DNA of 64,000 nt, taken from positions 19,651 through 83,650 of the forward strand of contig CAYRXH010000002.1 of assembly GCA_964428185.1 (NCBI GenBank), in the 5' to 3' direction. This document shows, piece after piece, positions 18,735-64,000 of this stretch. This DNA is from an uncultured Bacteroidales bacterium. Its GTDB lineage: Bacteria; Bacteroidota; Bacteroidia; Bacteroidales; DTU049. The notes beneath the pieces are model-generated. The model was not told the origin of the DNA. It searched no databases and was given only the letters and a program-made list of their open reading frames with translations. Position 1 is the first letter of the stretch. The number at the start of each line of letters is the position of its first letter. A program made the translations under genes and the position numbers.

Positions 18735-18743
18735 AAAAAAAAA

Positions 18744-18765
18744 GAGCCTGAACAATCAGGCTCTT
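18744..18765. terminator. bidirectional rho-independent terminator
   Basis: Stem agagcctga / tcaggctct (9 bp, loop acaa), flanked by A11 on the left and T8 on the right. Lies between convergent genes. Confidence 0.85.
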
Positions 18766-18784
18766 TTTTTTGTGCTTAATTTAC

Positions 18785-23720: not shown

Positions 23721-23816
23721 GAAGATTCTTAGATTGCGTGATGGTGTTGTGCTTGTGACTGGCTATTAGTGATTGGTGAGGGGTAAAAAACACTTCGACA
23801 TTCGATATTTCATGGA

Positions 23817-24140
23817 GGGACTCCTTTGGAGCAATATTCATTATTCTATACCTTATACTTTATCCTTTAGAAAATAGAAAATATTTCCTTTTGCCTTGTA
23901 CATTTTCCCTTATACCCTTATACCCTTATACCCTCCACCTCTATACCTCTATACCCATATACCCCTAACCCGCCTGTCAGTTCGAGTAGACCACGTAGAG
24001 GTCGTATTGAGAACATGTAGCCACTTCTCGATACTCCCTCCTGCGTCGGGCACTCGAAGTGACACAACTGTCATACAGAGGGATTGATAGACGAAAATCA
24101 TACTATGGCGTTATTTCTGCAATCCCGAAGTATCTCATAC
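23817..24140 (+). repeat. structured intergenic element, copy A (88-nt four-helix core 23976-24063, flanking hairpin 24073-24133)
   Basis: Aligns with 39907-40106. Its right flank aligns with the reverse complement of 40256-40371. See findings. Confidence 0.75.
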
Positions 24141-24228
24141 AAGATGATGCAATGACCCGCCACATTCAAAGCTTCATGACTACTATGAATCCATTCTTCA
24201 GTAATTGGTATGTTAGACATAAGAAAAA

Positions 24229-24258
24229 AGTGTAAAGCGAGATAACTCACTTCACACT
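24229..24258. terminator. imperfect hairpin terminator downstream of the AOR gene
   Basis: agtgtaaagcgag-ataa-ctcacttcacact (11 of 13 pairs), flanked by A6 and T4. On the minus strand it follows the AOR stop by ~30 nt. Confidence 0.5.
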
Positions 24259-24288
24259 TTTATCTTTTCACTTTCACCTTTCACCTTT

Positions 24289-26482: not shown

Positions 26483-26668
26483 TGAAATTATTCTGCATTT
26501 TCAAACTTTAGGAACTCCAAATTTTTGGAATTTGATTTTGATGTTTATCATAACTGATATGGACAAAGAACTTTATATTTTACGTTATCAGAGTATTATA
26601 AAAAATATTTTCTGGCTGTTTCCAAATTTCAGATAGTGATTTTATATATTTTCTCTATAAAAAGTAAA

Positions 26669-26742
26669 GAGTAGAGAGTGCAAGTGATGAGAAACTGCAA
26701 TTTCTTTCTCTATCTCTACTTACTACTTGCTACTTTTTTTTT
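26669..26742 (+). repeat. hairpin + T9 module, copy 1 (copy 2 at 60771..60841)
   Basis: The shared consensus, with copy 1 / copy 2 variants in brackets, is gtagagagtgcaagtg[atgag/cag]aaaaactgcaatttct...ctctactt[a/c]ctacttg[c/a]tac followed by T9. Confidence 0.75.
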
Positions 26743-26754
26743 CGGTTGTGTGTA

Positions 26755-26778
26755 AATTAAAATGTTCATGTAAATTTG
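26755..26778 (+). promoter_or_regulatory. promoter cassette copy 1 (-7 box TAAATTTG at 26771-26778)
   Basis: gtgtgtaaattaaaatgttcatgtaaatttgta matches the cassettes at 60907-60939 and 62607-62639 at 30 of 33 positions by my count. Confidence 0.6.
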
Positions 26779-26798
26779 TAGAAATATTTAATTTAAAA

Positions 26799-27389
26799 AT
26801 GACATTTTCAGAACTGAAGAACAAATTATCAGGTTATACTGTAGGCATTGCAGGAGCCGGTGGTCTTGGGTCCAACTGCGCCGTTTCTTTGGCCAGAGTG
26901 GGAGTGGGGACATTAATTATTGCCGATTTTGATAAAGTAACAGAATCCAATCTCAACAGGCAGTATTATTTTTACGATCAGATTGGCCGACAGAAAGTGG
27001 ATGCCCTGAGAGAAAATATTCAGAGGATCAATCCCGAAGTTCAAGTGATTCCAATTGATGAAAAGCTCACTGCTGAAAGTATTGCTCTTAATTTTGGCGA
27101 ATGTGATGTGATAGTTGAGGCATTTGACAAGGCTGAAATGAAACTAATGATTATTGAAGCTGTTGAAATGTATTTTCCCGACAAACCTCTGGTGAGTGCA
27201 ATGGGACTGGCAGGGTTTGGCAATCTGAATCAGATGAAAGTTGAGCATTATGGAAACTTGTGGGTTTGTGGCGATCTCATCTGGGAAGTGACCGAAGACA
27301 ATCCACCCATCGCTCCACGTGTTTGCATCGCAGCCAATATGCAGGCCGATGTAGTAATTGAACTGCTAATCACCAATCACACACTATGA
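26799..27389 (+). CDS. ThiF/MoeB/HesA-family E1-like adenylyltransferase (short form)
   Basis: Nucleotide-binding motif VGIAGAGGLGSNCAVSLARVGVGTLIIADFDKV...NLNRQ. The ATG at 26799 follows the promoter. The track ORF starts upstream at 26727, inside the repeat. Confidence 0.85.
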   Translation: MTFSELKNKLSGYTVGIAGAGGLGSNCAVSLARVGVGTLIIADFDKVTESNLNRQYYFYDQIGRQKVDALRENIQRINPEVQVIPIDEKLTAESIALNFGECDVIVEAFDKAEMKLMIIEAVEMYFPDKPLVSAMGLAGFGNLNQMKVEHYGNLWVCGDLIWEVTEDNPPIAPRVCIAANMQADVVIELLITNHTL

Positions 27390-39852: not shown

Positions 39853-40106
39853 AAGATTAAGCCTAAGGCTTCACTTATCCCAAGCCAAAGGCTTCCCTAT
39901 GGGATAGGGACTCCTTTGTAGCAATATTCAATATTCATGATTCTATACCTTTTCCCTTATACACTTATACTTTATACCCTTTTACCACCTCTATACCCAT
40001 ATACCCCTTACCCGCCTGTCAGTTCGAGTAGACCACGTTGTGGTCGTATCGAGAACATGTTGCCACTTCTCGATACACCCGCTGATGCGGGTACTCGAAG
40101 TGACAC
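39846..40106 (+). repeat. structured intergenic element, copy B (87-nt four-helix core 40018-40104)
   Basis: Aligns with 23707-24065. The core differs from copy A at 4 of the first 59 nt plus a replaced fourth hairpin. Confidence 0.75.
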
Positions 40107-40255
40107 TTTAAGTAGCTTTTGATTTTTACCCTCACAATGCCATTTCCCCTTTAGGGGCAAGTGGCAAATGCGAATGTTCAAAAAAATCAAAAACATATCA
40201 TCGCCTTATAGTTTGGCAAAACAAGACCACGGAAAGAGAAGGATCTCATTCATTT

Positions 40256-40371: not shown

Positions 40372-40400
40372 TTATTGGATATATAAATAGGTTATTAAAT

Positions 40401-40430
40401 AAAAAGGTTGCAGGAAACGGCAACCTTTTT
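40401..40430. terminator. bidirectional rho-independent terminator
   Basis: aaaaaggttgc-aggaaacg-gcaaccttttt. Lies 20 nt downstream of the giant gene's stop, between convergent transcription units. Confidence 0.85.
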
Positions 40431-40449
40431 GTTGGTTGTTATTGTCGTA

Positions 40450-43400
40450 TTATTCTTTTACCATTTTTCGTGTAAGTTGTTTTTGGTCAAAAGTAATAGA
40501 GTAGTAGTAGAGACCGGCTGCCATTGAACGTGTATTCAGAAGAATTGCATGTTGTCCTGTAGCATAGTCAGCACTTTCAGAGTAAATGGTTTCACCAAGA
40601 ATATTAGTCACTGTGAAAACAACCTGTCCTGCTTCCGGGATGGTGAATCCGATAGTTGTTTCATCAGCAGCGGGATTTGGTATGTTCTGCATCAGAATAA
40701 TTCCGTCAAGGCTGAGTTCTTCCACTCCGATAATCATTCCCTGGCAGAACTGATCATTAGTGGTAATGGCGTCACCTGCTATTGCAGTTTTTGCGCAAAG
40801 CTGGTAGTCAGCCGAAGGACTTGTAAATGTAGTAACAAAAGTATAATCGGTTTCAGCTCCGGGAGCCAAAGGTGTGGTAATCAGTTCGGTTGTTTGAGGA
40901 ACTCCGTCAATAAGGAACTGAACAGGGACTGAGTTGAGTGTTTGCAATCCATGGTTTTTCACACGAATAGTAACAGTGACATTCTGACCTGCCCAGGTGA
41001 AACCTGAAGGACTGATAATTGAGATCACTCCACCATCAATATTTGCGGGTCCTGCATTTAAGGTAACACATGTAGTGTCATTGAAATCGTATGTATCACC
41101 GCTGAGGTTTGTCCAAGAGCATAGGTCATAGACACTCTGGAACGGGCCTGTAAATGTAGTTGGGAAGGTGAATGATGTTTCAGCATCAGGAGCCAGCGAA
41201 CCAGTCCATGTACCGTTCACCGGAGGTGCACCTGTCATCAGTCTGTAAGTTACAGGAATTGATGTCAGAGTTTGAGTACCGAAGTTTTTCAGTCTTACAG
41301 TCACCTGATTCTGTGCGCCTGTTGCAGATTGTCCCACGGGAGCTTCAATTGCAATCACACCTGCATCATTGGGTATCTGAGGCTGGTAGATTGTAAAGTC
41401 ATCAACAGCCCATCCATTATATGTTACAGATGCATTTGAAAAGAAATGGAATCTGAACTGAACAGGAAGCGGGAAGTAATCAAATGCAGAAAGGCTGATT
41501 TCTGAATACTGCCATCCTGCAGATGAACCTGAGAATCCGGGAGCACTTGCAATGTTAGCAGTATTATACCAGTTGGTTCCTGTTGGATCATTGAGAACAC
41601 CCAAAGTGAGCCATGTGGAACCACCGTTGGTTGAATACTGAATCTTGCCACCGTCAACACCGTTTTCAGTGTCAAGCCAGTGCCAGAATCCAAGAGCCAT
41701 ATTGTTTACATTGCTGAAATTAAACTTGGGAGTGTATAAATAGTAGTTGCTGTTGTTATTGTAGTTCCCATTGAGTAGAGTTGCCCAGGCATTAACGGGG
41801 CTGTAGGCAGAATCAATCACTGTTGCACTTGGTATTCCAAGTTGCCACTGATTGTTGGTTCCGGCAATATACCAGTAATTTGTTGATTCAAAATCATCAA
41901 AGTATGGTACTGACAATACAGGAAGTCCGTATCTGTTTTCGCAGATTTCGTTGTTGCCGGGAATGCCGTCGCCTGCCAGATCTGTTCTTACACAGATTGT
42001 GTAATCGCCATCAGGGACAGTAAACGGAGTAGTAAATGTATAAATGTCTTCCTCATCAGCGGCAATTGATCCTGTCCATGTTTCGGTCACAGGTATGCCG
42101 CCATTGATTGTATATGATACAGGAACAGATGTGAGTGTGGAAGAACCGTAGTTTTTAATGGTAATCTGCATATTGATAGCTGATCCGCCATCTTCCATAG
42201 CATCCACGTTGTCAATTGATACGGCTCCTGCATCCAGAGGAGCAAGGATACGGATGTTGATGTCATCAATGTATGAATACCAGTTTGCAGCAGGGCTATA
42301 TGCATACCATCCGAAGTAATATATTCCGCTGGTCGTAGGTGTATAAATTGCAGTTGCAAGCTGATGAGTTGTGTTGGTAAAGAGTTGCAGCTGAAGTAAA
42401 GTGTCAATAACTGCTGTGTTTATCGGATCAGTTGCTACAACCAGGTCAGTGTTCTGGGCATATGTTGCACTTTCAGCACGATACCAGAAGTCAATCTTGT
42501 ATGCAGTGCCGGCTTCAAGATAGAAGCATTCGCTGAAGAGATAGTCATTTCCGGGATTGGTGCTGCCATTATAGAATCGTGCTGATTTGGATCCTGTGTG
42601 AGCAAAGGTTGTACTGTTATAACCTGGTTCCCAGGTACGGGCGTCACTGTTCAGGTCGAGGACTGTCCACTGACTGTAATCTTCACCGACTTCGAATCCC
42701 ATAAAGTAATCAGATGAATAGAAGTCATGACCTGATTTAATCGTGTAGGTAAGAGTATCATTGAATGCAATTCCGTCACCTGCCAGGTCCACTTCGAAGT
42801 ATATTTCATATACGCCGGGAGCAGATAAGTCAGCAGTTTGAGTAAATGCATAGTCAGTAACATCTCCTACTACAAGAGTGTCAGACCAGACCTCTGAAAC
42901 GGGAGTGCCTCCATTGATTGAGTACGATACATTCATAGAGAAGATTGTATCAAGCCCCAGATTTTTCACTCTGACAGTGATGATTTCAGCATTGCTTAAT
43001 CCGCAGCCTGCAATGGGAGAGATTCCCTGTACAACAGCAGCATCAATGCTGGCAGGAGTGTATTCATCCGCACCGATTGCAGGAGCTACAGGATCACGAA
43101 GATCACCATCAAAGTCATCGGAAATTTCAATGATGGGAGTGCCACTAGCCCAAAGTTGTGTGGTTGAAGCATGAAGATCTGTAGGAGAATAGTAGAAAGG
43201 ATTCCCTACTTGTGAGTTGAGGTCGTTTCCTGCAGGTGCATTCACTGACTGCAAAGCTGTTAGGTCTGCTCTTGCTGCTCCGTAGTAGACAAAATTTGTT
43301 CCGGTGCTATAATAGTTATTGTAGTCATGCGCCAAATAGTTGGTTGTCCCTACTGAATAGTGAGCATAACCGGCACCTGTTCCTGTAAAGGCGAGGGAGT

Positions 43401-46400
43401 TATTGCGGAAATCTGTTTGTGTTGCAGTTGAATTAATATAAGTAGCACGTCCGGTAATTCCGTTCATATTTATACTATTATACCACACATTGACTTTTTC
43501 AACAGTGGTAATATATAACCCTGTTGCTGTTGAAGCAGTTGAAGTAAATCCACCACCAATCATATTGTTTGAAATTGTTGAAGGAATTGTAGTTGGAATT
43601 GCTGATGTTGCAGTAACATATATACCGTAGGCACCAACATTTGTGATCTTGTTTTTATTGATTTCAAAAGGAGGAGCAATATTGGAATGGTAGATGCCGT
43701 AACTTGAAGTGGTGGTTGTTGGAAGAGTTCGTCCAATAACAATGTTGCTGTTGACTTTGGCCTGATCAAGTTGCAGTACATAGATGCTATAATAATACTG
43801 GTCTTTTAAAGTATTGTTGATGATTTCCACATCCTGCATTCTGGAAGCTGAGAGACCATAAAGGATAATTCCGTAGTATCCTCCGTTGATTGTGTTGCCG
43901 TCAAGAAGCAAATCAGTGACTGCATTTCCTCCTGTTGTTGCAGAAGTGGCGCTGCCGCTGGCTACAAAGCCGGCATAGTTCGTTGAACTTGCTGTTGTGT
44001 TAGTGTTCAATGTACAATTTGTAAACTGAATATCTTCGCAGCCATTCATCAGATGAACTGCCCATCCATATGTGGCATTTGCTTCTGCCTCAATGGTCAG
44101 GTTTTCAAACCTCATGTGTTTTGCACTGTCCAGTTTTAAAACATAGCGTTCTGCATTTACTGATGGACCATAGGATAAAACTGCATTGCCGTTACCAACG
44201 AATGTAATAGTATTGGTAGCGTCTGTGCCGGGAATATCATTCAATCTGACTTGTTCATAATAAGTACCCTGTTCTACAATAAATGTAACAGGACAACTGA
44301 TCCCCCAGTTTTGCAAACCATTTACTGCTTCGTTAAATGTTGTAAAGTCAGGATTTGTACCGCCGATATGATACACACCACACAGAGGTTCGTATGCTTC
44401 AAGCTGATAGTAGGCTGTATCATTGATGTTGATCAGATCAGTTCCACCATTGGGACTTTCTGTCCATGCAATGATTTCATTGTTCCCTAATAAAAATGTT
44501 GTAGATCCGATTGTAATATCAGTGGCAGTTTCGCCGGTCGCAAGAATTCCTGTCCAGTTATATGGAGTCTGCGCTAAGCCGTTGACAGTCCAGTGAATTT
44601 CAACAGCAGTAAGAGTATCTGATCCGTAGTTCTGAATGGTAACCTTTACATCATTAGCTTGCAGGTTGGCCGGATCAAATGGTTCGTCAATTGATACTAC
44701 GCCAGCATCAAGGTTGGGGATGCTTGTTGTGTCAATAATTGCCCATACTTCGGCACGGTCACTTTCGCAACCACCAGCAACTGATTCATAGAAAAATTCA
44801 CCGTTGAACATTCTGAGGTTGTTTGTGCCTCCGAAAGGAGAGCAGAGTCCAATTCCACTTTCAAATGATAAAGTAGAGTTGGCAACTACAGTAGTTGAGG
44901 TAACATTTGTGTAATTGGCATTATACTGTACATATATTCCCATGAGTTGTTCGTTGGGGAGAATTAAATCATCACATTGAAAATAGACCGGAACATCTAT
45001 GGTTGCATTTACGGTATATGTTCCAAGAAGTGTCCAGTTACCGGGTGTGAGTTCGGATCCAAGATATGTACCTGTTTTGTAATAAATACTGACAGGGAGT
45101 GCAGCATCTGAAGAGTTGGGAAGTATTTTCATGCCTGTGATTTTAATATCACCATCAATTGCTGTTAGGTTAAACATATTTCCACCTCCGCAGCCATTGC
45201 CCATTGCATATGAAATTTCAAGAGAATCTTCAACAAAAGTACCTTCACTTGCGCCCACATAATATGGAGTATTCGCATATAGGATTGGGGTCACATACAC
45301 TGCTCCGGTATCAATTACAACATCTGAAGTTGGAGAGTCGTACCATTTGAGCATATATGTGGAAGAGGCTGTGAGGGTTGCCTGTGTTGCATAGGGGATT
45401 GTGTCATTTTCAACGAGAGGCAAGGGAGCAATAAATCCTAAAGTTGCTGATTTACTTGTTGTATCATTCAGCTGATACCAGTCACCCGGATGTTCAACCC
45501 AAGCTGTGATTGTTATTGTTGTATCCCCGGTGGTGAGGTTTAAATCAAACGTTGTTGCAAATGTATAATCTGCAGTATCTCCGGGAGCAACAGTGATTGT
45601 TACGTTTTCTGTAACAGGAGTGCCACTGTCTATCTGATAAGAAGCAGTGAGTCCTGACATAATGGTATCTGTTCCGAGATTTGTAAATCTTATGCTGACT
45701 TCATTTGCATCACTTGAACAATCTTCATTAAGAGGATTAACGACTTCAACAATGGAAGGTTCATATTGTGGAAGAGTGACGTGAGCAGTTACAGGGACCC
45801 TTTCGCTTGAGCAGCCAGGTGCACCAACCTCCCAGTTGTAAAAATAATAATAAAGATCGTTTCTCGGAGTGTTTGTGGGATGTGCTGTAAGTGTACTAGT
45901 GTTGAGGGTAATTATCCCTGGTATTGAAAACGGATAGCCATAGTTCCCGGATGGAGCTGATGCTGATGGTTCAAACAGGAGACCTGAAATACCAGTAAAA
46001 GCTGGTCGCATTTTAAGATTGGTCCCTATCTGAAGATTGAAGTCTAGCTGAATGACATGGGGAGAAGGTGTTCCTGCAGGACCACCGGTAACATTCGCAG
46101 TTGTAGTATGTAAAACAGTTCCCGTTCCATCAATAATATCAATGGTTACTGTTCCTGAAGCACTGGTTGCACTCACAGGATAAACTGTAACTGATTTCAG
46201 AAGTGTCGGTGAGAAAACATCAAAGACAATCCCGAAATTTGTAGTGCCAGTTCCACTTGTGGCAGTTGGAAGTGCAGCAGGTAATCCGATATTCTGTAGT
46301 GTGCTGTTTGATGATTCAGCCCAATAGGTTGTAGTAACAAAGAGAGGAGGTGTATTTAACGTATCTCCCTGATGAATTGATGCCTGAGATAAAGAATCGG

Positions 46401-49400
46401 GAAACCAGTAGATTGTAGAGTTTGAACTTGCAATGAGCTCAGCAGGATAGCCATAATTAATATAGTCATCCTGAACAACAGGAGTATCAGGAACAAACCT
46501 GAATGTTTTTGTGATTTGTAGAGAATCATTGTCATGATATGGGTCTCCAGAAATATTGACGAATGTATTCAGTACAAAAGTTGTATCACTTGTGATTAAT
46601 CCGAAGTTCAGAGGGGTAGTGAATGTGAAACTTGCTGTGTCATAGGTAGGAATCGTCAGAGTAACAACTTCATTAACAGGAGTTCCTCCGTCAACAGTAT
46701 AGCTTGCATTGAAAGCGAAAACGGTATCAATACCGGTATTTGTAATATTAATGGTAACAAATTCATCTTCTCCGTTATGGCACAATTCATCATCTGGTGA
46801 TGTAATATCAATGACTGACAGATTGTAAGGGGGAATGTTCACTGTAATAAATACAGTGTCAGTGAAAGTACCACATGTGTTGGTAAAGGTAGCAACGTAA
46901 TCATACTGTCCGTTCACAGTCCATGTCCCTACAACAGTATCGGTATTGTTCACACTAGTGATAATACCTTCCAGACTCCAGTCGAACCCCGATAATGAAG
47001 CCGGAGCGGGAGGTGTAACATTGTTATTGAGGATATTAGGATTCTGTGGCGAAGTTCCTGAGTTGATCCAGTTTGTAGCATCATTTGTATATGGTCCTTC
47101 CAGCCTGTTTCCGGCACTGCTGACTGCAGGAGTGGTGCCGGTCCAGATATCAGGAGTGATTCCGGCGGCAACAGGGAAAGTCATATTTCCGTAAACTACG
47201 GCATCAACGATATCACCTTCGGTGTCTTTAATGACATAACCCTGTGGAATTGTTGAACTTAAGGTTGCAGTATGTCCGGAATGGTAATAGAAATTAGCAG
47301 GACTTGGAACACTACTTCCAAGTTGTCCAGTTGCAATAATACATATTCCGTTCGGGCTTAATACAGTACCAGGGGCAAGAATTTGTGCACCTGCAAGTGC
47401 TGATGATGACCAGATTTCAAGAGTATACCCGGAGATATCAGTATTGGGAGATCCGGTAATTTCAATATAATCGTCAGCAATCAGATATGAAGGCCATCCG
47501 CCAGAAGGAGCTCCGGTTGAGGAGCCTGCGTATTGACAGACTTCAGTGATAAATACTGAAGATGAAGGAAACATATTTGAAGTAACAGATAAATCAACTG
47601 TTTCTCCGGGAAGCATGACAGTAAATGAGTCAGGTGATGCATTGAACGTATATGCAGGGACAACAATGGAAAATGCAGGAGATAATGTATCATTGATAGT
47701 AAAAAAGTTGAGCATACTTGGTTCAATGAATGCATTGAGTGTGTATGTGCCGGGAACAGACATGTCAATTCCGTCATCTGATAAAATCAAATCCGCTCCG
47801 GGATTGAGTTTTCCTGTTGAAACAGTGATGGTTCCGTTTGTATTTACCGGACCAGTGACATTCCATGTGATTTGAAGTGGGAAGATACTGAAATCTGCTG
47901 TATCACCAATGATATTGCTGATAGTAAGATATAGACTGTCGTTATTGTTTAAACAAAGACCTCTAATAAGTTCGCCGTTGGTAATGCCAAGGTCGTGAGC
48001 CACAGGTGTGTATTCAACACAACCGATATCGGGAGTTGATGGGTCTCGGGGATTACCAAAGAAGTCAACTGTAATTCCTGCAATTGGAGTAGCTTTGCCA
48101 TCAAGTTGTGGTCCCAGAGGTTGAAGATCAAGAGGAGAAGAAAACACTGGGTCACCAACATATGAATTAAGATCATTTCCTGCAGGTATATTGACAGCTT
48201 GCAGAGCTGCAAGATTTGCACGTGCTGCTCCGTAATAGACGAAGTTGGCACCGTTGCTGTAGTAGTTGTTGTAATTATGAGCTACAACACTTGCAGTTGA
48301 TTGAACATTAGTGGCGTAGCCTGTAGTGCCTCCGTAATATCCAAATGAGTTATTTCTGATGTTGAGGTTGGTAACACCTGATACGACATATAGACTTCTT
48401 CCTGCCCCGGCAATGTTCACATAAACTGTATTGTAATAAATGCCGATATTTCCGCCTGAAGATAAATAAATTCCTGAAGGGGTTGCAGCTCTGAAGCCTC
48501 CGCCAATCATGTTGTTGGCAATGATTGATTGTCCTGAAGGTGCTGTGGATGAAATCACATAAATACCATAGGTGCCGGCATTGATAATCTTATTTCTGTT
48601 TACATCAAAATTACCATAATCATAACCTACATAAATTGCATAATGTAATGTGGTTCCACCAGTAGTACGTGCATCACAGAAATTCCCAATTATTTTGGAA
48701 GAGTTGACATAAGAATTTCTTACATTGTAATAATAAGCATTGTTCAGTGTGTTGTTGAGAATCTCAATTCCTGTAAGAGGTGTTGCGCTTGCACCGTTAA
48801 AGCTTATGCTGTAGTATCCGCCATTGATAGTATTGTTTTCAATTAAAATGTTATTGGCAGAATTTCCTGTTGTAGTTGCTGAAGTAGCCGACCCTGAAGC
48901 AATAATACCTGAATGATCAGATAAAGTTGATGTGCTGTGAACATTAATAGTACAGTTTGTAATTTCAATGTATTCTGTCTGGTTGGTCATAAAAAATGCC
49001 CACCCGTACGTTGAAGTATTTGGAATTGTTACCGTCAAACTGTCAAATCTCAAGTATTTTGCTCCGTTCATGTAAATGGCGGCACGATCAGCTGAAACAG
49101 TAGTCGTATACTGAATCATTGTTCCTGTGGTACCTCTGAAAGTAATAGTATTTGTAGATGAAGCACCGGGAAAAACACCGTTAAACACCAATCGGGTGTT
49201 AAAGGTGTCAGCAGCTACTTCAAAAACTACCGGACCATTGACGCCGCAATTTGTCAAAGCCATCATTGCATCGTCAAAAGACTGGAAGTTGGTGCCACCT
49301 GTCACCATTGAACTGTCAATGGTATAGGTTCCGCTGAGGATTGACTGGCATGCCCAGAGATTGACCAATGAAGTATCATTATTATTGTTGAGGTCAATTC

Positions 49401-51219
49401 CTGCATTGGGGTTTGTTGTCCAGACTTTCAGTTCATTGTTGCCGTCGGCAAAGGTGGCAATTCCGATATTGATGTTGGCAGCGACCATATCTTCTGTAAG
49501 CCATCCGGTCCAGTTGAATGTTCCCTGAGGAACCCCGTTAACTGAATACTGAATATCAACAGCGGTAAGCGTATCAGAACCGAAATTCTTGAGAGTCACA
49601 TACACAGGAGTGGGAACACTAGTAATCTGCGTCCCTGTGGGGCCTGTGATGGCTGTAATGCCAGCATCAAGAGTGTAAACTGTTGCATCAATGAAGAATT
49701 TGGTATCTGGTCTGTATTTATAGGAGGCAATTGTTGCATTCAGCGCAGTAGCACCAGTAATAACTGTGGTTCCGGTCCTTGCAATAATTGAGGTTTCTGT
49801 TCCGCTTGAGTATTTCCAGTCAAATTTGTCGGTAGCATAAGGAGATGGTCCGGCAAAAGTTACATTGGTTGCCATTTCCAGGCTGCCTCCGGTGTAAACG
49901 AAAGGAGTTGTCAGGGTCACTTCGTGCCACCCTGATACAGCAGGCACCTGATGGTTTGCATTGCTGTATACCATTGTAAAATTATCCAGAACATACTGCC
50001 AGGTTGTTGTTGACAATGGCGGGACATTGGCTGTATTGGCTAAATAAATTGTAAAAGAAAGTGCATTTGCATTGGTTCCTCCGGCACCTGCTTTATCCCA
50101 GGCGAGTTTTGTAATGGTCATTCCCGGATATATTCCGGCTGCATTGAGCTCTGCAGCTGTCCAGACAACCACAGATGAAGCATTTGTTGTTGTAGAAGTG
50201 CTGCTGAATCTGTATATTGGACTATAAAGTGTGTTTCCCGGAATCAAGCCTTCAGTACCAACAATGGTCTCGGCAGCTGCCTTTTTGGTGTAATACCAAT
50301 AGGTTGATGTTGTTGTATTATTTGAAGCAGGTGGGTTATCAAAGGCTGAAACATACCAGTCAACATGAGTATTGAGAGGAACACTTGGAATAGATCCTTC
50401 ATAAATATCACCTGTTGTGTTTGTCATGACAATCGTGTCTGTAACGGCATTGACAGTATAAATAAGCAGTGCTTCGTCAATACCTGAAGCATCAGTGATT
50501 GTTGCTGAAACCATAAATGGTCCTGTTCCGGTGAGAGTGTCCTGGGGTATAGGTGCAATCAGCGAAATTGTCGGAGGGATAAGTTCATTTGGTGAACCGA
50601 TGATTTTTATATCATCCAGAAACCATCCGGCATGCAGGTTGGCTCCGTTTCCGTTACCGTCTTTCATGCGAAATTTAATTCTTACCTGTGACTGATTGGC
50701 CGCAATCGAAGACAGATCAAACTGTTCTTTCATCCACCAGCTGTTTGTTGGAACAGCTGGTGGTACTGAAGCCTCCCAAAGAGTGGGATAGGCTGTTGCT
50801 GTGAATTTGTCGCCACTGGTTGAGAACTGACTTCCGTTCAGATTGATATACTGAGTACTGGTCAGTTTGGTCCAGTTGGTACCGTTGTCAGTAGAAATAA
50901 AAATTTCTCCTGCATCGAAAAATTCGATTTTACAAATATGATAAAATTCCAGCAGCACAAAATTGTAACCCGTAAAATCCATCACATCAGTGATGACCCA
51001 TGATGAATCATTCAGGGCAATTGTGTTGATGTAGGAATTTGTGCCGCTCACCTGCAGAGTATTGTTGATTGACCATGCGGGAACGCCTCCGGGAGTAACG
51101 ACATAGGTGCCGCCCTCGAAATTTTCATTCAATACAGTTGTTTGTGAAAAAACACTGAATGAAAAAACGAAAATTAAAACCGGAAAAATGATGTGTCTGA
51201 AAAATGAAAATGATTTCAT
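40450..51219 (-). CDS. giant (3589 aa) T9SS-secreted cell-surface protein with duplicated CARDB-like + parallel beta-helix modules
   Basis: Single uninterrupted ORF with signal peptide MKSFSFFRHIIFPVLIFVFSFSVFSQ. Contains repeated NFGSDTLT / NYGSDTLT Ig-like (CARDB-type) domains and two ~555-aa modules rich in NNTINGGYYGI / NNMIGGGF turns (right-handed beta-helix type). Also has a lamin-tail-like segment and a C-terminal T9SS domain ...IPNPAADETTIGFTIPEAGQVVFTVTNILGETIY...AAGLYYYSITFDQKQLTRKMVKE. Confidence 0.9.
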   Translation of the reverse strand: MKSFSFFRHIIFPVLIFVFSFSVFSQTTVLNENFEGGTYVVTPGGVPAWSINNTLQVSGTNSYINTIALNDSSWVITDVMDFTGYNFVLLEFYHICKIEFFDAGEIFISTDNGTNWTKLTSTQYINLNGSQFSTSGDKFTATAYPTLWEASVPPAVPTNSWWMKEQFDLSSIAANQSQVRIKFRMKDGNGNGANLHAGWFLDDIKIIGSPNELIPPTISLIAPIPQDTLTGTGPFMVSATITDASGIDEALLIYTVNAVTDTIVMTNTTGDIYEGSIPSVPLNTHVDWYVSAFDNPPASNNTTTSTYWYYTKKAAAETIVGTEGLIPGNTLYSPIYRFSSTSTTTNASSVVVWTAAELNAAGIYPGMTITKLAWDKAGAGGTNANALSFTIYLANTANVPPLSTTTWQYVLDNFTMVYSNANHQVPAVSGWHEVTLTTPFVYTGGSLEMATNVTFAGPSPYATDKFDWKYSSGTETSIIARTGTTVITGATALNATIASYKYRPDTKFFIDATVYTLDAGITAITGPTGTQITSVPTPVYVTLKNFGSDTLTAVDIQYSVNGVPQGTFNWTGWLTEDMVAANINIGIATFADGNNELKVWTTNPNAGIDLNNNNDTSLVNLWACQSILSGTYTIDSSMVTGGTNFQSFDDAMMALTNCGVNGPVVFEVAADTFNTRLVFNGVFPGASSTNTITFRGTTGTMIQYTTTVSADRAAIYMNGAKYLRFDSLTVTIPNTSTYGWAFFMTNQTEYIEITNCTINVHSTSTLSDHSGIIASGSATSATTTGNSANNILIENNTINGGYYSISFNGASATPLTGIEILNNTLNNAYYYNVRNSYVNSSKIIGNFCDARTTGGTTLHYAIYVGYDYGNFDVNRNKIINAGTYGIYVISSTAPSGQSIIANNMIGGGFRAATPSGIYLSSGGNIGIYYNTVYVNIAGAGRSLYVVSGVTNLNIRNNSFGYYGGTTGYATNVQSTASVVAHNYNNYYSNGANFVYYGAARANLAALQAVNIPAGNDLNSYVGDPVFSSPLDLQPLGPQLDGKATPIAGITVDFFGNPRDPSTPDIGCVEYTPVAHDLGITNGELIRGLCLNNNDSLYLTISNIIGDTADFSIFPLQITWNVTGPVNTNGTITVSTGKLNPGADLILSDDGIDMSVPGTYTLNAFIEPSMLNFFTINDTLSPAFSIVVPAYTFNASPDSFTVMLPGETVDLSVTSNMFPSSSVFITEVCQYAGSSTGAPSGGWPSYLIADDYIEITGSPNTDISGYTLEIWSSSALAGAQILAPGTVLSPNGICIIATGQLGSSVPSPANFYYHSGHTATLSSTIPQGYVIKDTEGDIVDAVVYGNMTFPVAAGITPDIWTGTTPAVSSAGNRLEGPYTNDATNWINSGTSPQNPNILNNNVTPPAPASLSGFDWSLEGIITSVNNTDTVVGTWTVNGQYDYVATFTNTCGTFTDTVFITVNIPPYNLSVIDITSPDDELCHNGEDEFVTINITNTGIDTVFAFNASYTVDGGTPVNEVVTLTIPTYDTASFTFTTPLNFGLITSDTTFVLNTFVNISGDPYHDNDSLQITKTFRFVPDTPVVQDDYINYGYPAELIASSNSTIYWFPDSLSQASIHQGDTLNTPPLFVTTTYWAESSNSTLQNIGLPAALPTATSGTGTTNFGIVFDVFSPTLLKSVTVYPVSATSASGTVTIDIIDGTGTVLHTTTANVTGGPAGTPSPHVIQLDFNLQIGTNLKMRPAFTGISGLLFEPSASAPSGNYGYPFSIPGIITLNTSTLTAHPTNTPRNDLYYYFYNWEVGAPGCSSERVPVTAHVTLPQYEPSIVEVVNPLNEDCSSDANEVSIRFTNLGTDTIMSGLTASYQIDSGTPVTENVTITVAPGDTADYTFATTFDLNLTTGDTTITITAWVEHPGDWYQLNDTTSKSATLGFIAPLPLVENDTIPYATQATLTASSTYMLKWYDSPTSDVVIDTGAVYVTPILYANTPYYVGASEGTFVEDSLEISYAMGNGCGGGNMFNLTAIDGDIKITGMKILPNSSDAALPVSIYYKTGTYLGSELTPGNWTLLGTYTVNATIDVPVYFQCDDLILPNEQLMGIYVQYNANYTNVTSTTVVANSTLSFESGIGLCSPFGGTNNLRMFNGEFFYESVAGGCESDRAEVWAIIDTTSIPNLDAGVVSIDEPFDPANLQANDVKVTIQNYGSDTLTAVEIHWTVNGLAQTPYNWTGILATGETATDITIGSTTFLLGNNEIIAWTESPNGGTDLININDTAYYQLEAYEPLCGVYHIGGTNPDFTTFNEAVNGLQNWGISCPVTFIVEQGTYYEQVRLNDIPGTDATNTITFVGNGNAVLSYGPSVNAERYVLKLDSAKHMRFENLTIEAEANATYGWAVHLMNGCEDIQFTNCTLNTNTTASSTNYAGFVASGSATSATTGGNAVTDLLLDGNTINGGYYGIILYGLSASRMQDVEIINNTLKDQYYYSIYVLQLDQAKVNSNIVIGRTLPTTTTSSYGIYHSNIAPPFEINKNKITNVGAYGIYVTATSAIPTTIPSTISNNMIGGGFTSTASTATGLYITTVEKVNVWYNSINMNGITGRATYINSTATQTDFRNNSLAFTGTGAGYAHYSVGTTNYLAHDYNNYYSTGTNFVYYGAARADLTALQSVNAPAGNDLNSQVGNPFYYSPTDLHASTTQLWASGTPIIEISDDFDGDLRDPVAPAIGADEYTPASIDAAVVQGISPIAGCGLSNAEIITVRVKNLGLDTIFSMNVSYSINGGTPVSEVWSDTLVVGDVTDYAFTQTADLSAPGVYEIYFEVDLAGDGIAFNDTLTYTIKSGHDFYSSDYFMGFEVGEDYSQWTVLDLNSDARTWEPGYNSTTFAHTGSKSARFYNGSTNPGNDYLFSECFYLEAGTAYKIDFWYRAESATYAQNTDLVVATDPINTAVIDTLLQLQLFTNTTHQLATAIYTPTTSGIYYFGWYAYSPAANWYSYIDDINIRILAPLDAGAVSIDNVDAMEDGGSAINMQITIKNYGSSTLTSVPVSYTINGGIPVTETWTGSIAADEEDIYTFTTPFTVPDGDYTICVRTDLAGDGIPGNNEICENRYGLPVLSVPYFDDFESTNYWYIAGTNNQWQLGIPSATVIDSAYSPVNAWATLLNGNYNNNSNYYLYTPKFNFSNVNNMALGFWHWLDTENGVDGGKIQYSTNGGSTWLTLGVLNDPTGTNWYNTANIASAPGFSGSSAGWQYSEISLSAFDYFPLPVQFRFHFFSNASVTYNGWAVDDFTIYQPQIPNDAGVIAIEAPVGQSATGAQNQVTVRLKNFGTQTLTSIPVTYRLMTGAPPVNGTWTGSLAPDAETSFTFPTTFTGPFQSVYDLCSWTNLSGDTYDFNDTTCVTLNAGPANIDGGVISIISPSGFTWAGQNVTVTIRVKNHGLQTLNSVPVQFLIDGVPQTTELITTPLAPGAETDYTFVTTFTSPSADYQLCAKTAIAGDAITTNDQFCQGMIIGVEELSLDGIILMQNIPNPAADETTIGFTIPEAGQVVFTVTNILGETIYSESADYATGQHAILLNTRSMAAGLYYYSITFDQKQLTRKMVKE

Positions 51220-58207: not shown

Positions 58208-58285
58208 GTGTGAGAGTGAGTTTAGAGAAACAGAGTGAGAGTGCTCGTGAGAGCGAGAGCTATCACGAGCACTCTCACTCTGTTT
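58208..58285 (-). repeat. tRNA-trailing hairpin (perfect 23-bp stem) plus conserved CA-rich tail, copy 2
   Basis: On the minus strand: aaacagagtgagagtgctcgtga-12 nt loop-tcacgagcactctcactctgttt, then ctctaaactcactctcacac. It starts at the last base of the tRNA-Leu CCA. Confidence 0.8.
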
Positions 58286-58372
58286 GGTACCCAGAGCGGG
58301 ACTTGAACCCGCACGACCTCAACGGTCACAGGATTTTAAGTCCTGCGTGTCTACCAGTTCCACCATCCGGGC
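58285..58372 (-). tRNA. tRNA-Leu (anticodon TAA), long variable arm, CCA encoded
   Basis: Acceptor GCCCGGA/TCTGGGT, anticodon stem-loop CAGGA-CTTAAAA-TCCTG, extra arm, T-loop GGTTCAAGTCC, 3' ACCA. Hand-folded. Confidence 0.88.
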
Positions 58373-60674: not shown

Positions 60675-60770
60675 AGAGTTTAATGCAAATGGATGCAGTG
60701 AACATCTGCTGATCCATTTTAGACCAGTTCAGTTTTTTTTTGTATCTTTCCTCTAAAAAAAAGAAAAAGC

Positions 60771-60841
60771 GTAGAGAGTGCAAGTGCAGAAAAACTGCAA
60801 TTTCTCACTACTCTCTACTTCCTACTTGATACTTTTTTTTT
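60771..60841 (+). repeat. hairpin + T9 module, copy 2
   Basis: Outer stem gtagagagt...actctctac encloses tgcag-aaaaa-ctgca, followed by ttcctacttgatac and T9. Homologous to 26669-26742. Confidence 0.75.
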
Positions 60842-60860
60842 ATTCCCCGTTAAATAAATG

Positions 60861-60939
60861 ATTTATCCTGTTAGATTGTTTTTTTTCTAACAGGACAATT
60901 TAACGGGGTGAATGTAAATAAAATTTTCATGTAAATTTG
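60861..60939 (+). promoter_or_regulatory. palindrome + promoter cassette, copy 2 (TCCTGTTAGA 60866-60875 / TCTAACAGGA 60886-60895; -7 box 60932-60939)
   Basis: Nearly base-for-base identical to 62563-62639. Ends in TAAATTTG. Confidence 0.65.
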
Positions 60940-61016
60940 TTTACTTCTTTCCCTGGCTTGTTTATGGTAATTGCAAGTGCACTTTGTTAAAGGAAAACAG
61001 AAAAAACAGAACTGTT

Positions 61017-62423
61017 ATGAGTAAAACCAACATTGATTTTTTATATCATCCAAGACATTACAGGGAAATACCATTGTGGAAAAATGTGACTGAAGCAGAG
61101 TGGGCTGACCCGCACTGGCAACTGAAAAACAGTATCAGAAATACATCTGATCTGAATAAAGTGATATCATTGAGCAAAAAGCAGTTGTCAATGATTGAAG
61201 ATACTATCAGGCGGATGAAGGCTGAGGGCAAGGAACCTATGAGAATCACACCCTATTATACTACTTTGATGCAGGAAGATGTTTTTCACCCCCAAATGCT
61301 TGAAGGCGAAAGACAGGAAGAACGCCTTGATCCCATATTCTGGCAGAGTGTTCCCACACCTGCTCATTTGTTTTACCCCGATGCAGCAGTTGAGGGCTTC
61401 ATGGCTGAAGGCTCACGCAGTTATGGCTCAGTGTATCAGCGTTACCCAAATCGGGTAGCATTTTTTGTTGGTTCAAACATCAACTGTTCATCCTATTATA
61501 CCCACTGTCAGCGAGCAAAATCACTGGATAAGGACTCAACAGTTTCCACTGAAGATATAAAAAAAGGACTGTTTTATATCGCCTTGAATACAAATATTGA
61601 TGAAGTGCTGGTAACTGGTGGCGATGCTCTGCAGATCAACAAGCAACTGCTGGCTTCACTTCTTTCTGAATTAAGTAAAATCGGTCATGTGCGTAGTATC
61701 AGAATTGCAAGCCGTGTTCCTGTTGTGATGCACATGGGAATCAATGATGAGCTGATGGAAATGATCAAAAACAATGCAAACAAGTATAATGATGGTTCCC
61801 GGAAACATGTGTAAATTATGATGCATCTGGATCATTATCAAGAGGTTACAGAAGAGATGCAGCAGTGTATGGAACGCATTCATTCACATGGTCTGATTCC
61901 TCGCAACCAGACAGTTTTACTCAAGCATGTGAATTCATATTACCGGACTCTTGCTGAGACATTCAGGCGGATGCACTGGGCAGGATTACATCCCTATTAT
62001 TTGCTTCAGTGTCATAAGGAGCGTGGGATTGTTCACTTTATTACACCCATTCAGGTGGGAAAAATATATATGAAGCATCTTCAGGGCTGGTTGTCAGGTA
62101 TTGTACTTCCCACTTATGCTGCCAATGTGGAAGGGGGAGGAGGCAAGGTGCTTCTCATGCCATCGGGATATGATACACTGAACATGCTCCCTGATCTGGA
62201 AGCGAAAAGGAGGAAACACTATGCACGTGTGAAAACTTGGGATGGAAGAATTATTGCTGAATATGAAGCCCTTGGAAGAACAAGCCGTGATGAATTTGAT
62301 CAGTCTGTAAAAATTATGGATGAATTCATCGGCAGGAGCGGGGTTTATAAGCCAAGTCTCATTATTACAGAGAAGGACGGTACTCCTGTCAAGGTGACCA
62401 ATGTCAAATTTCCTGACCTTTAA
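61017..62423 (+). pseudogene. KamA-family (lysine 2,3-aminomutase-like) radical SAM gene, apparently inactivated
   Basis: Two ORFs in the same frame are separated by a TAA at 61812-61814 (..SRKHV*IMMHLDHYQEVT..). The family CxxxCxxC cluster motif reads CSSYYTHC, with the second Cys a Tyr codon at 61497-61499. The C-terminal part has NQTVLLKHVN, HPYYLLQCHKERGIVHF and EGGGGKVLLMP. Confidence 0.7.
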
Positions 62424-62562
62424 AATGAAAAGAAATCATGTTTGCTTGATTATGACATACAGGATAAGGAAAAGGGCCTGCCGTGGACAAATCCTGCACT
62501 GATCAGCAACATTCTTGATGAAAAGTACAAAAAGTTGCATTTATAACTTGAATTCAACAATT

Positions 62563-62639
62563 ATTTATCCTGTTAGATTGTTTTTTATCTAACAGGACAA
62601 TTTAACGTGAATGTAAATTAAAATTTTCATGTAAATTTG
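62563..62639 (+). promoter_or_regulatory. palindrome + promoter cassette, copy 3 (TCCTGTTAGA 62568-62577 / TCTAACAGGA 62588-62597; -7 box 62632-62639)
   Basis: See 60861-60939. The -7 box lies 40 nt upstream of the ppdK ATG. Confidence 0.65.
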
Positions 62640-62678
62640 TAAATTCAAAAAGATATAATCATAAATACTCTATAGAAA

Positions 62679-64000
62679 ATGGGAACATTGAAACGCGTTT
62701 ACACATTTGGCAACAGAAAAGCCGAAGGCAAAGCAGAAATGAAAAATTTACTGGGTGGAAAAGGTGCGAATCTGGCTGAAATGAGCCTGATCGGAGTGCC
62801 TGTACCTCCGGGACTAACAATTACAACCGAAGTTTGTACTGAATACAATCAAATAGGAAAAGAGAAGGTGATTGAACTTCTTCTGGATGATGTCCGTTCA
62901 GGGATCAGGAATATGGAAGACATCATGGGAAGCCGGTTCTGTGATTCACAAAATCCATTGCTTGTTTCGGTACGTTCAGGAGCTAGGGCATCCATGCCAG
63001 GGATGATGGATACCATCCTTAATCTTGGTCTGAATGATGAATCCGTGGAAGGAATTGCCCGTAAATCAGGGAATGAGCGTTTTGCATGGGATTCATACCG
63101 CCGGTTTGTTCAGATGTATGGCGACGTTGTTCTTGGAATGAAACCTGTTTCCAAAGAAGATCATGATCCGTTTGAAGAAATCATTGACCACATGAAGGAA
63201 GAGAAGGGTGTTGAACTGGATACTCAGCTGACAACTGATGATTTGAAAGAACTGGTCAGGCGTTTTAAAACAGCAGTGAAAAACAGCACCGGCAGAGATT
63301 TTCCTGCAGATCCCTGGGAACAACTCTGGGGAGCAGTGATTGCCGTGTTTGAAAGCTGGAATAATGAGCGCGCTCGCTTATACCGGAGACTGAACAATAT
63401 CCCTGACGAATGGGGCACTGCAGTTAATGTACAGGCCATGGTTTTTGGAAACATGGGCGATACCAGCGGAACAGGAGTGTGTTTTACCAGAGATTCAGCC
63501 ACCGGAGAAAATATTCTGACAGGTGAATATCTTATGAATGCGCAGGGGGAAGATGTGGTTGCCGGAATCAGAACACCTCAGCAGATATCAATTGAACAGT
63601 CAAAACGCTGGGCGCAGCTTGCACAGGTTTCTGAAGATGAGCGTCGCGGCAGATATCCATCACTTGAAGAAGTGATGCCACAGTCATATCAAGAACTTGT
63701 GGACATTCTTAATAAACTGGAGAACCATTACAAAGACATGCAGGATATTGAGTTTACAATCCAGGAAGGGAAACTCTGGATGCTTCAGACAAGAAACGGA
63801 AAACGTACAGGTGCTTCCATGCTCAGAATTGCCATGGATTTTTACCGTGAAGGCAGACTGACAGAGCAGGAAGTGCTGAAACGTATGGATCCTGCCAAGC
63901 TGGATGAGTTATTGCATCCTGTATTTGATACATCAGCTCTTGCAAGTGCACATGTTATTGCAAAAGGACTCCCTGCATCTCCGGGTGCAGCAACAGGACA
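62679..64000 (+). CDS. ppdK: pyruvate, phosphate dikinase (N-terminal ~440 aa; continues beyond window end)
   Basis: Absent from the ORF track because it runs off the edge. My translation gives [53 protein letters not shown]...[25 protein letters not shown]...[23 protein letters not shown]. Confidence 0.93.

Follow-up and report, generated by a model that had tools for sequence, protein, structure and literature searches.

Introduction

Highly similar noncoding DNA upstream of nonhomologous genes has been described as promoter reuse or as putative mobile promoters (PMPs) (Matus-Garcia, Nijveen & van Passel 2012, NAR 40:10032; Nijveen et al. 2012, PMC3575422). Most PMP families are pairs with approximately 92% identity, and whether recency or selection is the cause of that similarity was left undecided (PMC3575422). 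Promoters are also carried by miniature repeats, such as the Correia elements of Neisseria, ERIC, and REPIN (cited in PMC3575422). In the Bacteroidota, the consensus for promoters of sigma-ABfr consists of a -7 motif, TAnnTTTG, and a -33 motif, TTTG (Bayley et al. 2000, as summarized in PMC7366714), the second of which is often missing (PMC7366714). Here, we examine a promoter cassette that occurs twice in a 64-kb stretch of contig CAYRXH010000002.1 from an uncultured Bacteroidales bacterium (hereafter the window, the whole stretch of DNA that was analyzed), once upstream of a kamA-like gene and once upstream of its neighbor ppdK, which encodes pyruvate, phosphate dikinase. Each copy combines a hairpin-forming palindrome with a promoter core. 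On balance, we lean toward the view that the cassette is a lineage-specific noncoding duplication or gene conversion, that is, a case of promoter reuse in which the copies are similar because they are recent or converted and not because they are the footprint of a shared regulator.

Two copies of a promoter cassette

BLAST searches within the window aligned 60857-60941 (copy 1, plus strand, upstream of the kamA-like gene) with 62559-62641 (copy 2, plus strand, in the kamA-ppdK spacer and probably the original) at 92.9% identity over 85 columns (E = 7e-24). An earlier note on this DNA had described two near-identical copies of about 80 nt that differ by one substitution and two short indels, a description that holds except that the homology is slightly longer than was recognized at the time. 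Between 60861-60939 and 62563-62639, the three differences are a T/A substitution at 60885/62587, which is the last base of the palindrome spacer (loop), a GGG found at 60906-60908 in copy 1 and missing from copy 2, and a 1-nt T indel that sits in an A/T run of the core. Over the full cassette there are four differences, all of them outside the palindrome arms and the -7 box. The copies are direct repeats on either side of the kamA-like gene, 1.7 kb apart, and copy 2 starts approximately 10 nt past the ancestral kamA stop so as to fill nearly the whole kamA-ppdK spacer. A conserved small open reading frame (ORF) in the cassette was ruled out, as the ATG at 60859 in copy 1 is ATT in copy 2.

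Both copies carry a perfect -7 box, TAAATTTG, on the plus strand, at 60932-60939 in copy 1 (predicted transcription start near 60945) and at 62632-62639 in copy 2 (39 nt from the ppdK ATG, with a predicted start near 62645). The same box occurs at 26771 in a third promoter core (26751-26780, plus strand), which has no palindrome and lies 19 nt upstream of the ATG (26799) of a ThiF-family gene (26799-27389, plus strand; PF00899, 1.3e-34). The recurrence of the core at this thiF-like gene had been noted earlier as 30 of 33 positions, and we recovered that figure for the extended alignment, with 29 of 30 positions of 26751-26780 identical to the ppdK core. Looking up the exact protein sequence of the thiF-like gene yielded no match. 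No other promoter-like site among the 57 TAnnTTTG sites in the window has the extended core. All three boxes match the sigma-ABfr -7 motif and their positions agree with the promoters of relatives. The -33 TTTG, looked for approximately 19 to 21 nt upstream of the -7 box, is not present in the cassettes, where the bases are GAAT/AATG. From the sequence, each copy would be expected to drive sigma-ABfr transcription starting approximately 6 to 8 nt downstream of TAAATTTG. The motif ATGTAAAT, said in the earlier note to occur twice in each core, 18 nt apart, was found twice per copy at a distance of 17 nt in copy 1 and 18 nt in copy 2.

The right-hand boundary of the cassette is sharp. In all three core copies, homology stops at the -7 box plus 1 to 2 nt, and the genes that follow are nonhomologous: a KamA-family radical SAM gene, ppdK (PPDK_N, 1.5e-66; the 5' part at 62679-64000, plus strand, runs off the window), and thiF. 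Thus, the two long copies do precede unrelated genes, as had been claimed. The published PMP test asks for at least 80% identity over at least 50 nt in the -150 to -50 windows upstream of nonhomologous genes (PMC3575422). The kamA and ppdK upstream regions are 92.2% identical over 64 nt (E = 3e-23) and the KamA-family radical SAM, PPDK_N, and ThiF genes are nonparalogous; the thiF core, at -48 to -19, lies outside the test window. The homology end at the -7 box, the outcome of the PMP test, and the lineage specificity described below support what the earlier note had offered as one of two options, namely that a promoter module was recently duplicated or gene-converted.

Two further properties of the core were observed. 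At 62610-62637 (also 60911-60937), it forms an imperfect palindrome, AATGTAAATTAAAATTTTCATGTAAATT, that is self-complementary at 22 of 28 positions. In addition, the ppdK core reads as two 18-nt units, ATGTAAATT...TTC, identical at 13 of 18 positions, with the second unit reaching into ppdK-specific flank, which may weakly suggest that the core originated at ppdK itself.

Palindrome and nested repeats

The 64 kb contain exactly two occurrences of the palindrome TCCTGTTAGA-N10-TCTAACAGGA, and none is expected from 100 shuffles, even with three mismatches. In copy 1 (60866-60895), it is a perfect 10-bp inverted repeat around a 10-nt T-rich spacer, with an RNA hairpin of -13.6 kcal/mol and no T-run after it. 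In copy 2 (62568-62597; -15.4 kcal/mol), which begins 21 nt past the ancestral kamA stop, the loop substitution makes the repeat longer, so that it can be read as 11 bp with an 8-nt spacer or as 14-8-14 with one mismatch. The 91-nt segments around the palindromes fold with z-scores of -6.2 (copy 1) and -5.2 (copy 2) compared to shuffles. The palindrome had been placed about 50 nt upstream of the -7 box, and its centers are indeed 51.5 nt (copy 1) and 49.5 nt (copy 2) away. Copy 1 alone has an outer perfect 11-bp inverted repeat, CCCCGTTAAAT / ATTTAACGGGG, which spans 60845-60908 (arms at 60845-60855 and 60898-60908), includes the GGG, and gives a nested fold of -27.2 kcal/mol; an outer repeat as good was obtained in only 24 of 2,000 shuffles of the region. 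The inner and outer arms of copy 1 are related (8 of 11 positions identical), yielding four half-sites, CCyGTTArAT, two forward and then two reverse.

Given its location, copy 2 of the palindrome could be a 3' stem-loop of the kamA transcript (a terminator, pause, or stabilizer) that insulates the ppdK promoter, with copy 1 simply carried along. The start of the hairpin just 21 nt past the stop codon and its stability (-13.6 to -15.4 kcal/mol, with z about -5 to -6 against shuffles) favor such a role, as do the unrelated hairpins that some relatives carry in the same spacer (a 12-bp stem in L033/34 and an A/T stem with a T-run in L036) and the observation that identical arms are found as ordinary terminators in other phyla. 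Yet, the palindrome does not look like an intrinsic terminator, which combines a stable, G+C-rich stem with a U-tract. Its stem is stable but only 40% G+C, and a U-tract is missing after it on both strands (CAATTTAAC / TAAATCATT). The loop is long (8 to 10 nt), three relatives (L031, L032, and L038) have nothing comparable, and a terminator consensus scan returned a single weak match at the palindromes, on the minus strand of copy 2. By contrast, the clear terminators of the window (18736-18771, 40398-40433, and 24221-24266) consist of an A-run, a G+C-containing stem, and a T-run. We consider a 3' stem-loop a tentative possibility that is compatible with duplication, and this judgment stands independently of those on the other readings. 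If the palindrome acts at all, we infer that it does so as an RNA or DNA hairpin, which would stand ahead of the ppdK promoter and serve as a barrier to kamA read-through or as its 3'-end structure.

Other classes of structured sites were compared with the palindrome. The 14-8-14 reading of copy 2, with its one mismatch, could fit the core site of a tyrosine recombinase (lox-, FRT-, or dif-like; 11- to 14-bp arms and a 6- to 8-bp spacer), and the sites are direct repeats around kamA. No recombinase was found among the 28 window proteins scanned, and the break in a strain variant described below lies 30 nt outside the copy 2 site. A likeness to integron attC sites was rejected: GTTAGAT / ATCTAAC fit GTTRRRY / RYYYAAC, but their order within the stem is the reverse of that in attC. 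Finally, matches to Rfam at gathering score in the window were tRNAs only, and permissive scans of both intergenic regions gave chance-level matches only.

Decay of the kamA-like gene

One of the two genes served by the cassette is damaged. The kamA-like radical SAM gene (61017-62546, plus strand; ancestral stop at 62544-62546) appears in the ORF list as two same-frame ORFs, 60984-61814 and 61818-62423. Its closest homologue, P0001, is 509 amino acids long and 82% identical over 468 residues. In comparison, TAA replaces Tyr codons at residue 266 (TAT to TAA, 61812-61814) and residue 469 (TAC to TAA, 62421-62423), and the homologous frame runs 40 more codons past the second TAA to the ancestral stop. 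The CxxxCxxC motif reads CSSYYTHC in the window gene and CASYCTHC in P0001, so that a Cys of the iron-sulfur site is lost to Tyr (61497-61499). Moreover, in an alignment with 120 homologues, the window protein is deviant at nine columns whose conservation elsewhere is 97% or more. Recoding of TAA was ruled out, given that TAA ends 21 of 35 window genes. Gene calls on an independent contig (L035) return the same two kamA fragments, of 265 and 201 amino acids, with both stops present. The lesions are therefore not errors of one assembly, and the gene is pseudogene-like. Because there is no frameshift and the gene is still 82% identical to its closest homologue, its inactivation looks recent, as judged from the sequence. 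A decaying kamA-like gene makes it unlikely that selection for coregulation of kamA and ppdK is the reason for cassette identity.

Native promoters in relatives

The best matches to the window proteins in the collections reached 82% identity for KamA and 77% for PpdK. kamA is followed by ppdK in L031, L032, L033, L034, and L038, and in L036 the contig end cuts a long gene after kamA; by this comparison of gene orders, the kamA-ppdK arrangement is ancestral. A KamA-family gene of approximately 510 amino acids directly upstream of ppdK is thus a conserved pair across several uncultivated Bacteroidales lineages. In addition, the order of a TonB-receptor gene and then kamA is common to the window and L002.

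In the relatives, the spacer between kamA and the downstream gene is 77 to 158 nt long. The downstream gene has its own -7 box (TAATTTTG, TACCTTTG, or TAACTTTG) 37 to 46 nt from its ATG in L031, L033/34, L036, and L038, with none in L032, compared to 39 nt in the window. Furthermore, the bases around the window ppdK box, TTTTCATGTAAATTTGTAAATTCAA, resemble those in L031 and L038, TTTTCATAATTTTGCAAACTCAA, with flanks of the form TTTTCA...AAAyTCAA. In view of box position and flanks, both similar to those of relatives, we regard the core at ppdK as the native one. Neither the palindrome nor any sequence that could be aligned with the cassette was found in the kamA or ppdK upstream regions of L002, L030, L031, L032, L033, L036, and L038.

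Upstream of kamA, relatives also have ordinary promoters, with TTTTTTGTATCTTTG or TATCTTTG 73 to 76 nt from the ATG in L002, L031, and L032, and TATATTTG at 38 nt in L033. The closest relative, L002 (82% KamA identity), has an ordinary TATCTTTG promoter and no cassette. The kamA 5' untranslated region of the window (60955-61016, plus strand) is orthologous to that of L002, with an alignment to 60955-61019 whose score was reached by 0 of 500 shuffles. Measured from this conserved leader, the cassette box TAAATTTG is no more than 1 nt off the position of the native L002 -7 box. Approximately 186 nt further upstream, TTTTTGTATCTTTC (60741-60753, plus strand) may be a displaced remnant of the native kamA promoter with its final G changed to C; its match with L002 is marginal (13 of 500 shuffles). 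The L032 kamA leader could seemingly be aligned with the cassette too, a result that was discarded as nonsignificant (53 of 500 shuffles).

On the 3' side of kamA, L002 carries AGATTAGAAG repeated approximately 21 times in tandem, along with a Transposase_mut gene (4150-4370 and 4510-5730), and its ppdK is on another contig (L030). With these in place of ppdK, the kamA 3' flank appears to have been rearranged in at least one other lineage.

These comparisons bear on the second option of the earlier note, strong constraint from a shared regulator. Under this view, the palindrome would be the operator of a dimeric transcription factor near -62/-64 that activates or represses both promoters, and selection would keep the copies identical. 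Perfect 10-bp arms are kept in both copies while every difference falls elsewhere, the position of the palindrome suits an upstream activator, and the four CCyGTTArAT half-sites of copy 1 could form an operator array. But four differences would spare the arms about one time in three under neutrality (p ~0.34). The half-site centers are 20 bp apart, which is an unusual geometry, and the distance from palindrome to -7 box differs by 2 nt between copies. There is no third palindrome in the 64 kb at three mismatches, and the thiF copy is without one. One of the two target genes is pseudogene-like, and conservation of the palindrome upstream of kamA or ppdK was seen in no relative. As a candidate ancestral half-site, we considered CCTGTTAG, which lies upstream of kamA in L002 and within kamA coding sequence in L033/34, and rejected it because such 8-mers are found at chance frequency given how many 8-mers and kilobases were searched.

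Searches of public collections gave no support for a widespread operator either. The exact palindrome (gap of 8 to 12) was found at 19 loci in 596 Gb of species-representative genomes, all in unrelated phyla and none with cassette flanks; most of these loci are flanked by an A-run and a T-run, as is typical of terminators. A slightly more specific palindrome pattern matched eight unrelated loci in JGI metagenomes, again none with cassette flanks, and scans of IMG/VR for module A (described below), the palindrome flank, and the core returned coding or unrelated matches only. With kamA decayed, no more copies in the window, orthologous promoters without a palindrome, and unrelated matches in the public scans, constraint by a regulator was not supported, and we consider a shared operator improbable.

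Assembly support and a possible strain variant

Because the cassette is a repeat, a second copy could have arisen from a misjoin or a collapsed repeat during assembly. Logan contig L035 (SRR11582162_92851), from an independent run, is 100% identical to window positions 60890-62537. It supports the junction of copy 1 with kamA; the junctions of copy 2 rest on the window and the conserved kamA-ppdK synteny. The organism is present in runs SRR11582162 and SRR11582163, and Logan carries its genome as short contigs only. An artifact might be suspected given that L035 leaves the window sequence at 62537/38 and has no copy 2, and that Logan contigs end at 60800 and 60890, within the repeat region. 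However, four differences and unique flanks set the copies apart, the copy 1-kamA junction is reproduced by L035, and the kamA-ppdK adjacency is ancestral in five loci of relatives. The copies have no exact 31-mer in common, so graphs with k = 31 would not confuse them, and the contig breaks coincide with T8 to T10 homopolymers. We regard an artifact as very improbable.

Past 62537, L035 runs into 81 nt of sequence unrelated to the window. Next comes 62527-62554 as its reverse complement (28 nt, 100%), and more unrelated sequence follows. The shared 28-mer ends at 62554, the homology of copy 2 starts 2 to 5 nt later, and the kamA 3' end of L035 is not followed by copy 2. This variant could represent an inversion of approximately 98 bp between 11-bp inverted repeats (ACAAAAAGTTG / CAACTTTTTGT), an insertion, or a chimeric contig.

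Module A and the mosaic upstream regions

The region upstream of copy 1 is itself repeated. Within-window BLAST aligned 60738-60841 with 26640-26742 at 84% identity over 106 columns (E = 1e-21), and we refer to this repeat as module A. One copy (60754-60841) lies directly upstream of cassette copy 1 and the other (26655-26742) directly upstream of the thiF core. Module A forms a long hairpin, GTAGAGAGT...ACTCTCTAC, whose inner stem is GCAG/CTGC, and is framed by an A-run and a run of T9 to T10 (T10 at 60832-60841 in the kamA copy). At thiF, its neighbors are an AFOR gene (minus strand) and thiF itself (plus strand), and since these genes are divergent, a terminator is not needed there. Neither gathering-score nor permissive scans matched module A to an Rfam family. 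A degenerate -7-like box precedes it at both loci (TATCTTTC / TATATTTTC), and from its structure, module A could be a small transcription unit (small RNA) or a palindromic repeat element.

Taken together, the upstream regions are mosaics of three parts: module A and core at thiF; module A, palindrome, and core at kamA; and palindrome and core at ppdK. This arrangement raises the prospect that module A, the nested palindrome, and the outward-facing core make up a small nonautonomous mobile repeat, either similar to a MITE (miniature transposable element with inverted repeats) or Correia element or based on a hairpin like REP/PATE, that supplies a promoter to the gene on its right. Consistent with such an element, copy 1 has the perfect 11-bp outer inverted repeat around its palindrome, the right boundary is always at the -7 box, and the degenerate boxes ahead of module A look as if the element had landed just past a native promoter. 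The strain variant L035 breaks at the left edge of copy 2, the window contains other dispersed repeats, and promoter-bearing repeats are known elsewhere (e.g., Correia, ERIC, and REPIN; PMC3575422). Other features are harder to reconcile with mobility. No target-site duplication was found, and the terminal repeats are inconsistent, as the outer one is present in copy 1 only. There is no transposase or recombinase among the 28 window proteins scanned and no copy in the public collections scanned. In addition, the ppdK -7 box and flanks look orthologous to the promoters of relatives, which argues that this copy is native and not inserted. A candidate target-site duplication, AATTCAA, around copy 2 was rejected; its left occurrence is part of a local palindrome, TTGAATTCAA, and its right occurrence is part of the conserved ppdK leader. 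Overall, we consider a mobile element unlikely.

A more specific version of this idea joins module A, the nested palindrome with its four CCyGTTArAT half-sites, and the 30-nt core into a promoter-swapping repeat of a kind not described before. Such a repeat would insert itself at sigma-ABfr -7 boxes or beside them and put its own promoter in place of the resident one in single-nucleotide register, perhaps mobilized by a hairpin-recognizing enzyme encoded elsewhere in the genome. We give this proposal little credence.

Several other repeats were observed in the window. Another dispersed intergenic repeat of approximately 250 nt occurs at 23816-24070 and 39906-40110, with a core up to 94% identical; in it, short repeats of the CCCTTATAC type precede a GTCAGTTCGAGTAGACCACG...CACTCGAAGTGACAC segment, and no Rfam family matches it at gathering score. 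Evidently, this genome tolerates and spreads noncoding repeats. A 27-bp hairpin at 58228-58285, 96% complementary (AAACAGAGTGAGAGTGCTCGTGAGAGC / GCTATCACGAGCACTCTCACTCTGTTT), abuts a tRNA-Leu (58285-58372, minus strand) and has a GAGAGTGC composition like that of module A. Repeats also occur within genes: a giant ORF of 3,589 amino acids (40450-51219, minus strand) has internal repeats approximately 4.95 kb apart (43172-43332 and 48122-48282, 72%). Lastly, the window encodes proteins with the Por_Secre_tail domain of the type IX secretion system (T9SS). These proteins, homologues whose names come from Bacteroidales MAGs, and promoters of the TAnnTTTG type all fit an uncultivated Bacteroidales-like source.

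Discussion

Our results are best accommodated, in our judgment, by promoter reuse through duplication or conversion, and the sequence suggests how this may have come about. The source would have been the kamA-ppdK spacer, which holds the hairpin-forming palindrome and, as far as its -7 box, the native ppdK promoter. Copying would have gone from ppdK to kamA and thiF. At kamA, the spacer copy and module A would form an insertion of approximately 190 nt (about 60754 to 60939) between the apparent old kamA promoter and the conserved kamA 5' untranslated region. This insertion would have pushed the old promoter upstream while bringing in a new -7 box in the same register (to within 1 nt). The palindrome-less third core of 30 nt, also preceded by module A, would serve the thiF-like gene. 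Given that the three copies all lose homology at the -7 box and that the register at kamA is kept to one nucleotide, the junctions may have formed at shared short homology, by illegitimate recombination or conversion at -7-box microhomology. Alternatively, it may be that only in-register events survive.

Several observations weigh against this account. Copy 1 is the more elaborate of the two, with a perfect 11-bp outer repeat, GGG included, that is missing from copy 2. Such a repeat would be accounted for more readily were copy 1, or a master copy not seen here, the older form, which weighs against the proposed direction of copying. It is because the outer repeat fits simple copying from ppdK to kamA awkwardly that the mobile-element and operator-array readings stay alive. 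Similarly, the coincidence of the L035 break with the cassette boundary hints that the left edge of copy 2 may be a recombination junction of a discrete element. The displaced kamA promoter is a marginal match, and the same T-rich stretch weakly aligns with module A of thiF. The relatives available for comparison are distant (77% to 82% protein identity), and therefore absence of the cassette from them does not date the event. Furthermore, our comparison covers 64 kb of the genome, and a genome-wide family or regulon is possible.

Promoter reuse by duplication or conversion is a kind of event that is already known, and we take the cassette to be a further example of it. If our interpretation is true, this would be a clean and unusually well-delimited case in the Bacteroidota, in which a housekeeping promoter was copied to the native -7 position of a neighbor and, in part, to a third gene. 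It also carries a caution: near-identical upstream DNA in one genome does not equal a regulon unless gene integrity and orthologous promoters have been checked. A family of such modules, if found across the whole genome, would point to a means by which transcription is rewired in a phylum with promoters unlike the Escherichia coli type.

Comparison with known systems

The cassette resembles, to different degrees, four described systems. Like sigma-ABfr promoters, it has a perfect TAAATTTG at the expected distance from the start codon and at positions orthologous to the promoters of relatives. Unlike them, it is without the -33 TTTG and has an unusually long upstream core of 30 nt that is shared among copies and includes a second, degenerate TAAATT box 17 to 18 nt upstream. 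With intrinsic (Rho-independent) terminators, the palindrome has in common a stable stem-loop just past a stop codon and arms whose sequence recurs in terminator-like hairpins of unrelated genomes. It differs from them in having no U-tract, a stem of 40% G+C, and a loop of 8 to 10 nt, and the genuine terminators of the window look different.

Correia elements, ERIC, and REPIN are likewise short, hairpin-forming intergenic repeats that are able to carry outward promoters and terminator-like structures. In contrast, the cassette has no consistent terminal inverted repeats and no target-site duplications, and only two to three copies and no cognate transposase were seen. With PMPs, the cassette shares highly similar noncoding DNA before nonhomologous genes and the form of a pair at 92% to 93% identity. 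It departs from them in that its copies are just 1.7 kb apart and bracket one decaying gene, in that its homology ends exactly at a Bacteroidota -7 box, and in that a third partial copy and the co-occurring module A make its upstream regions mosaic.

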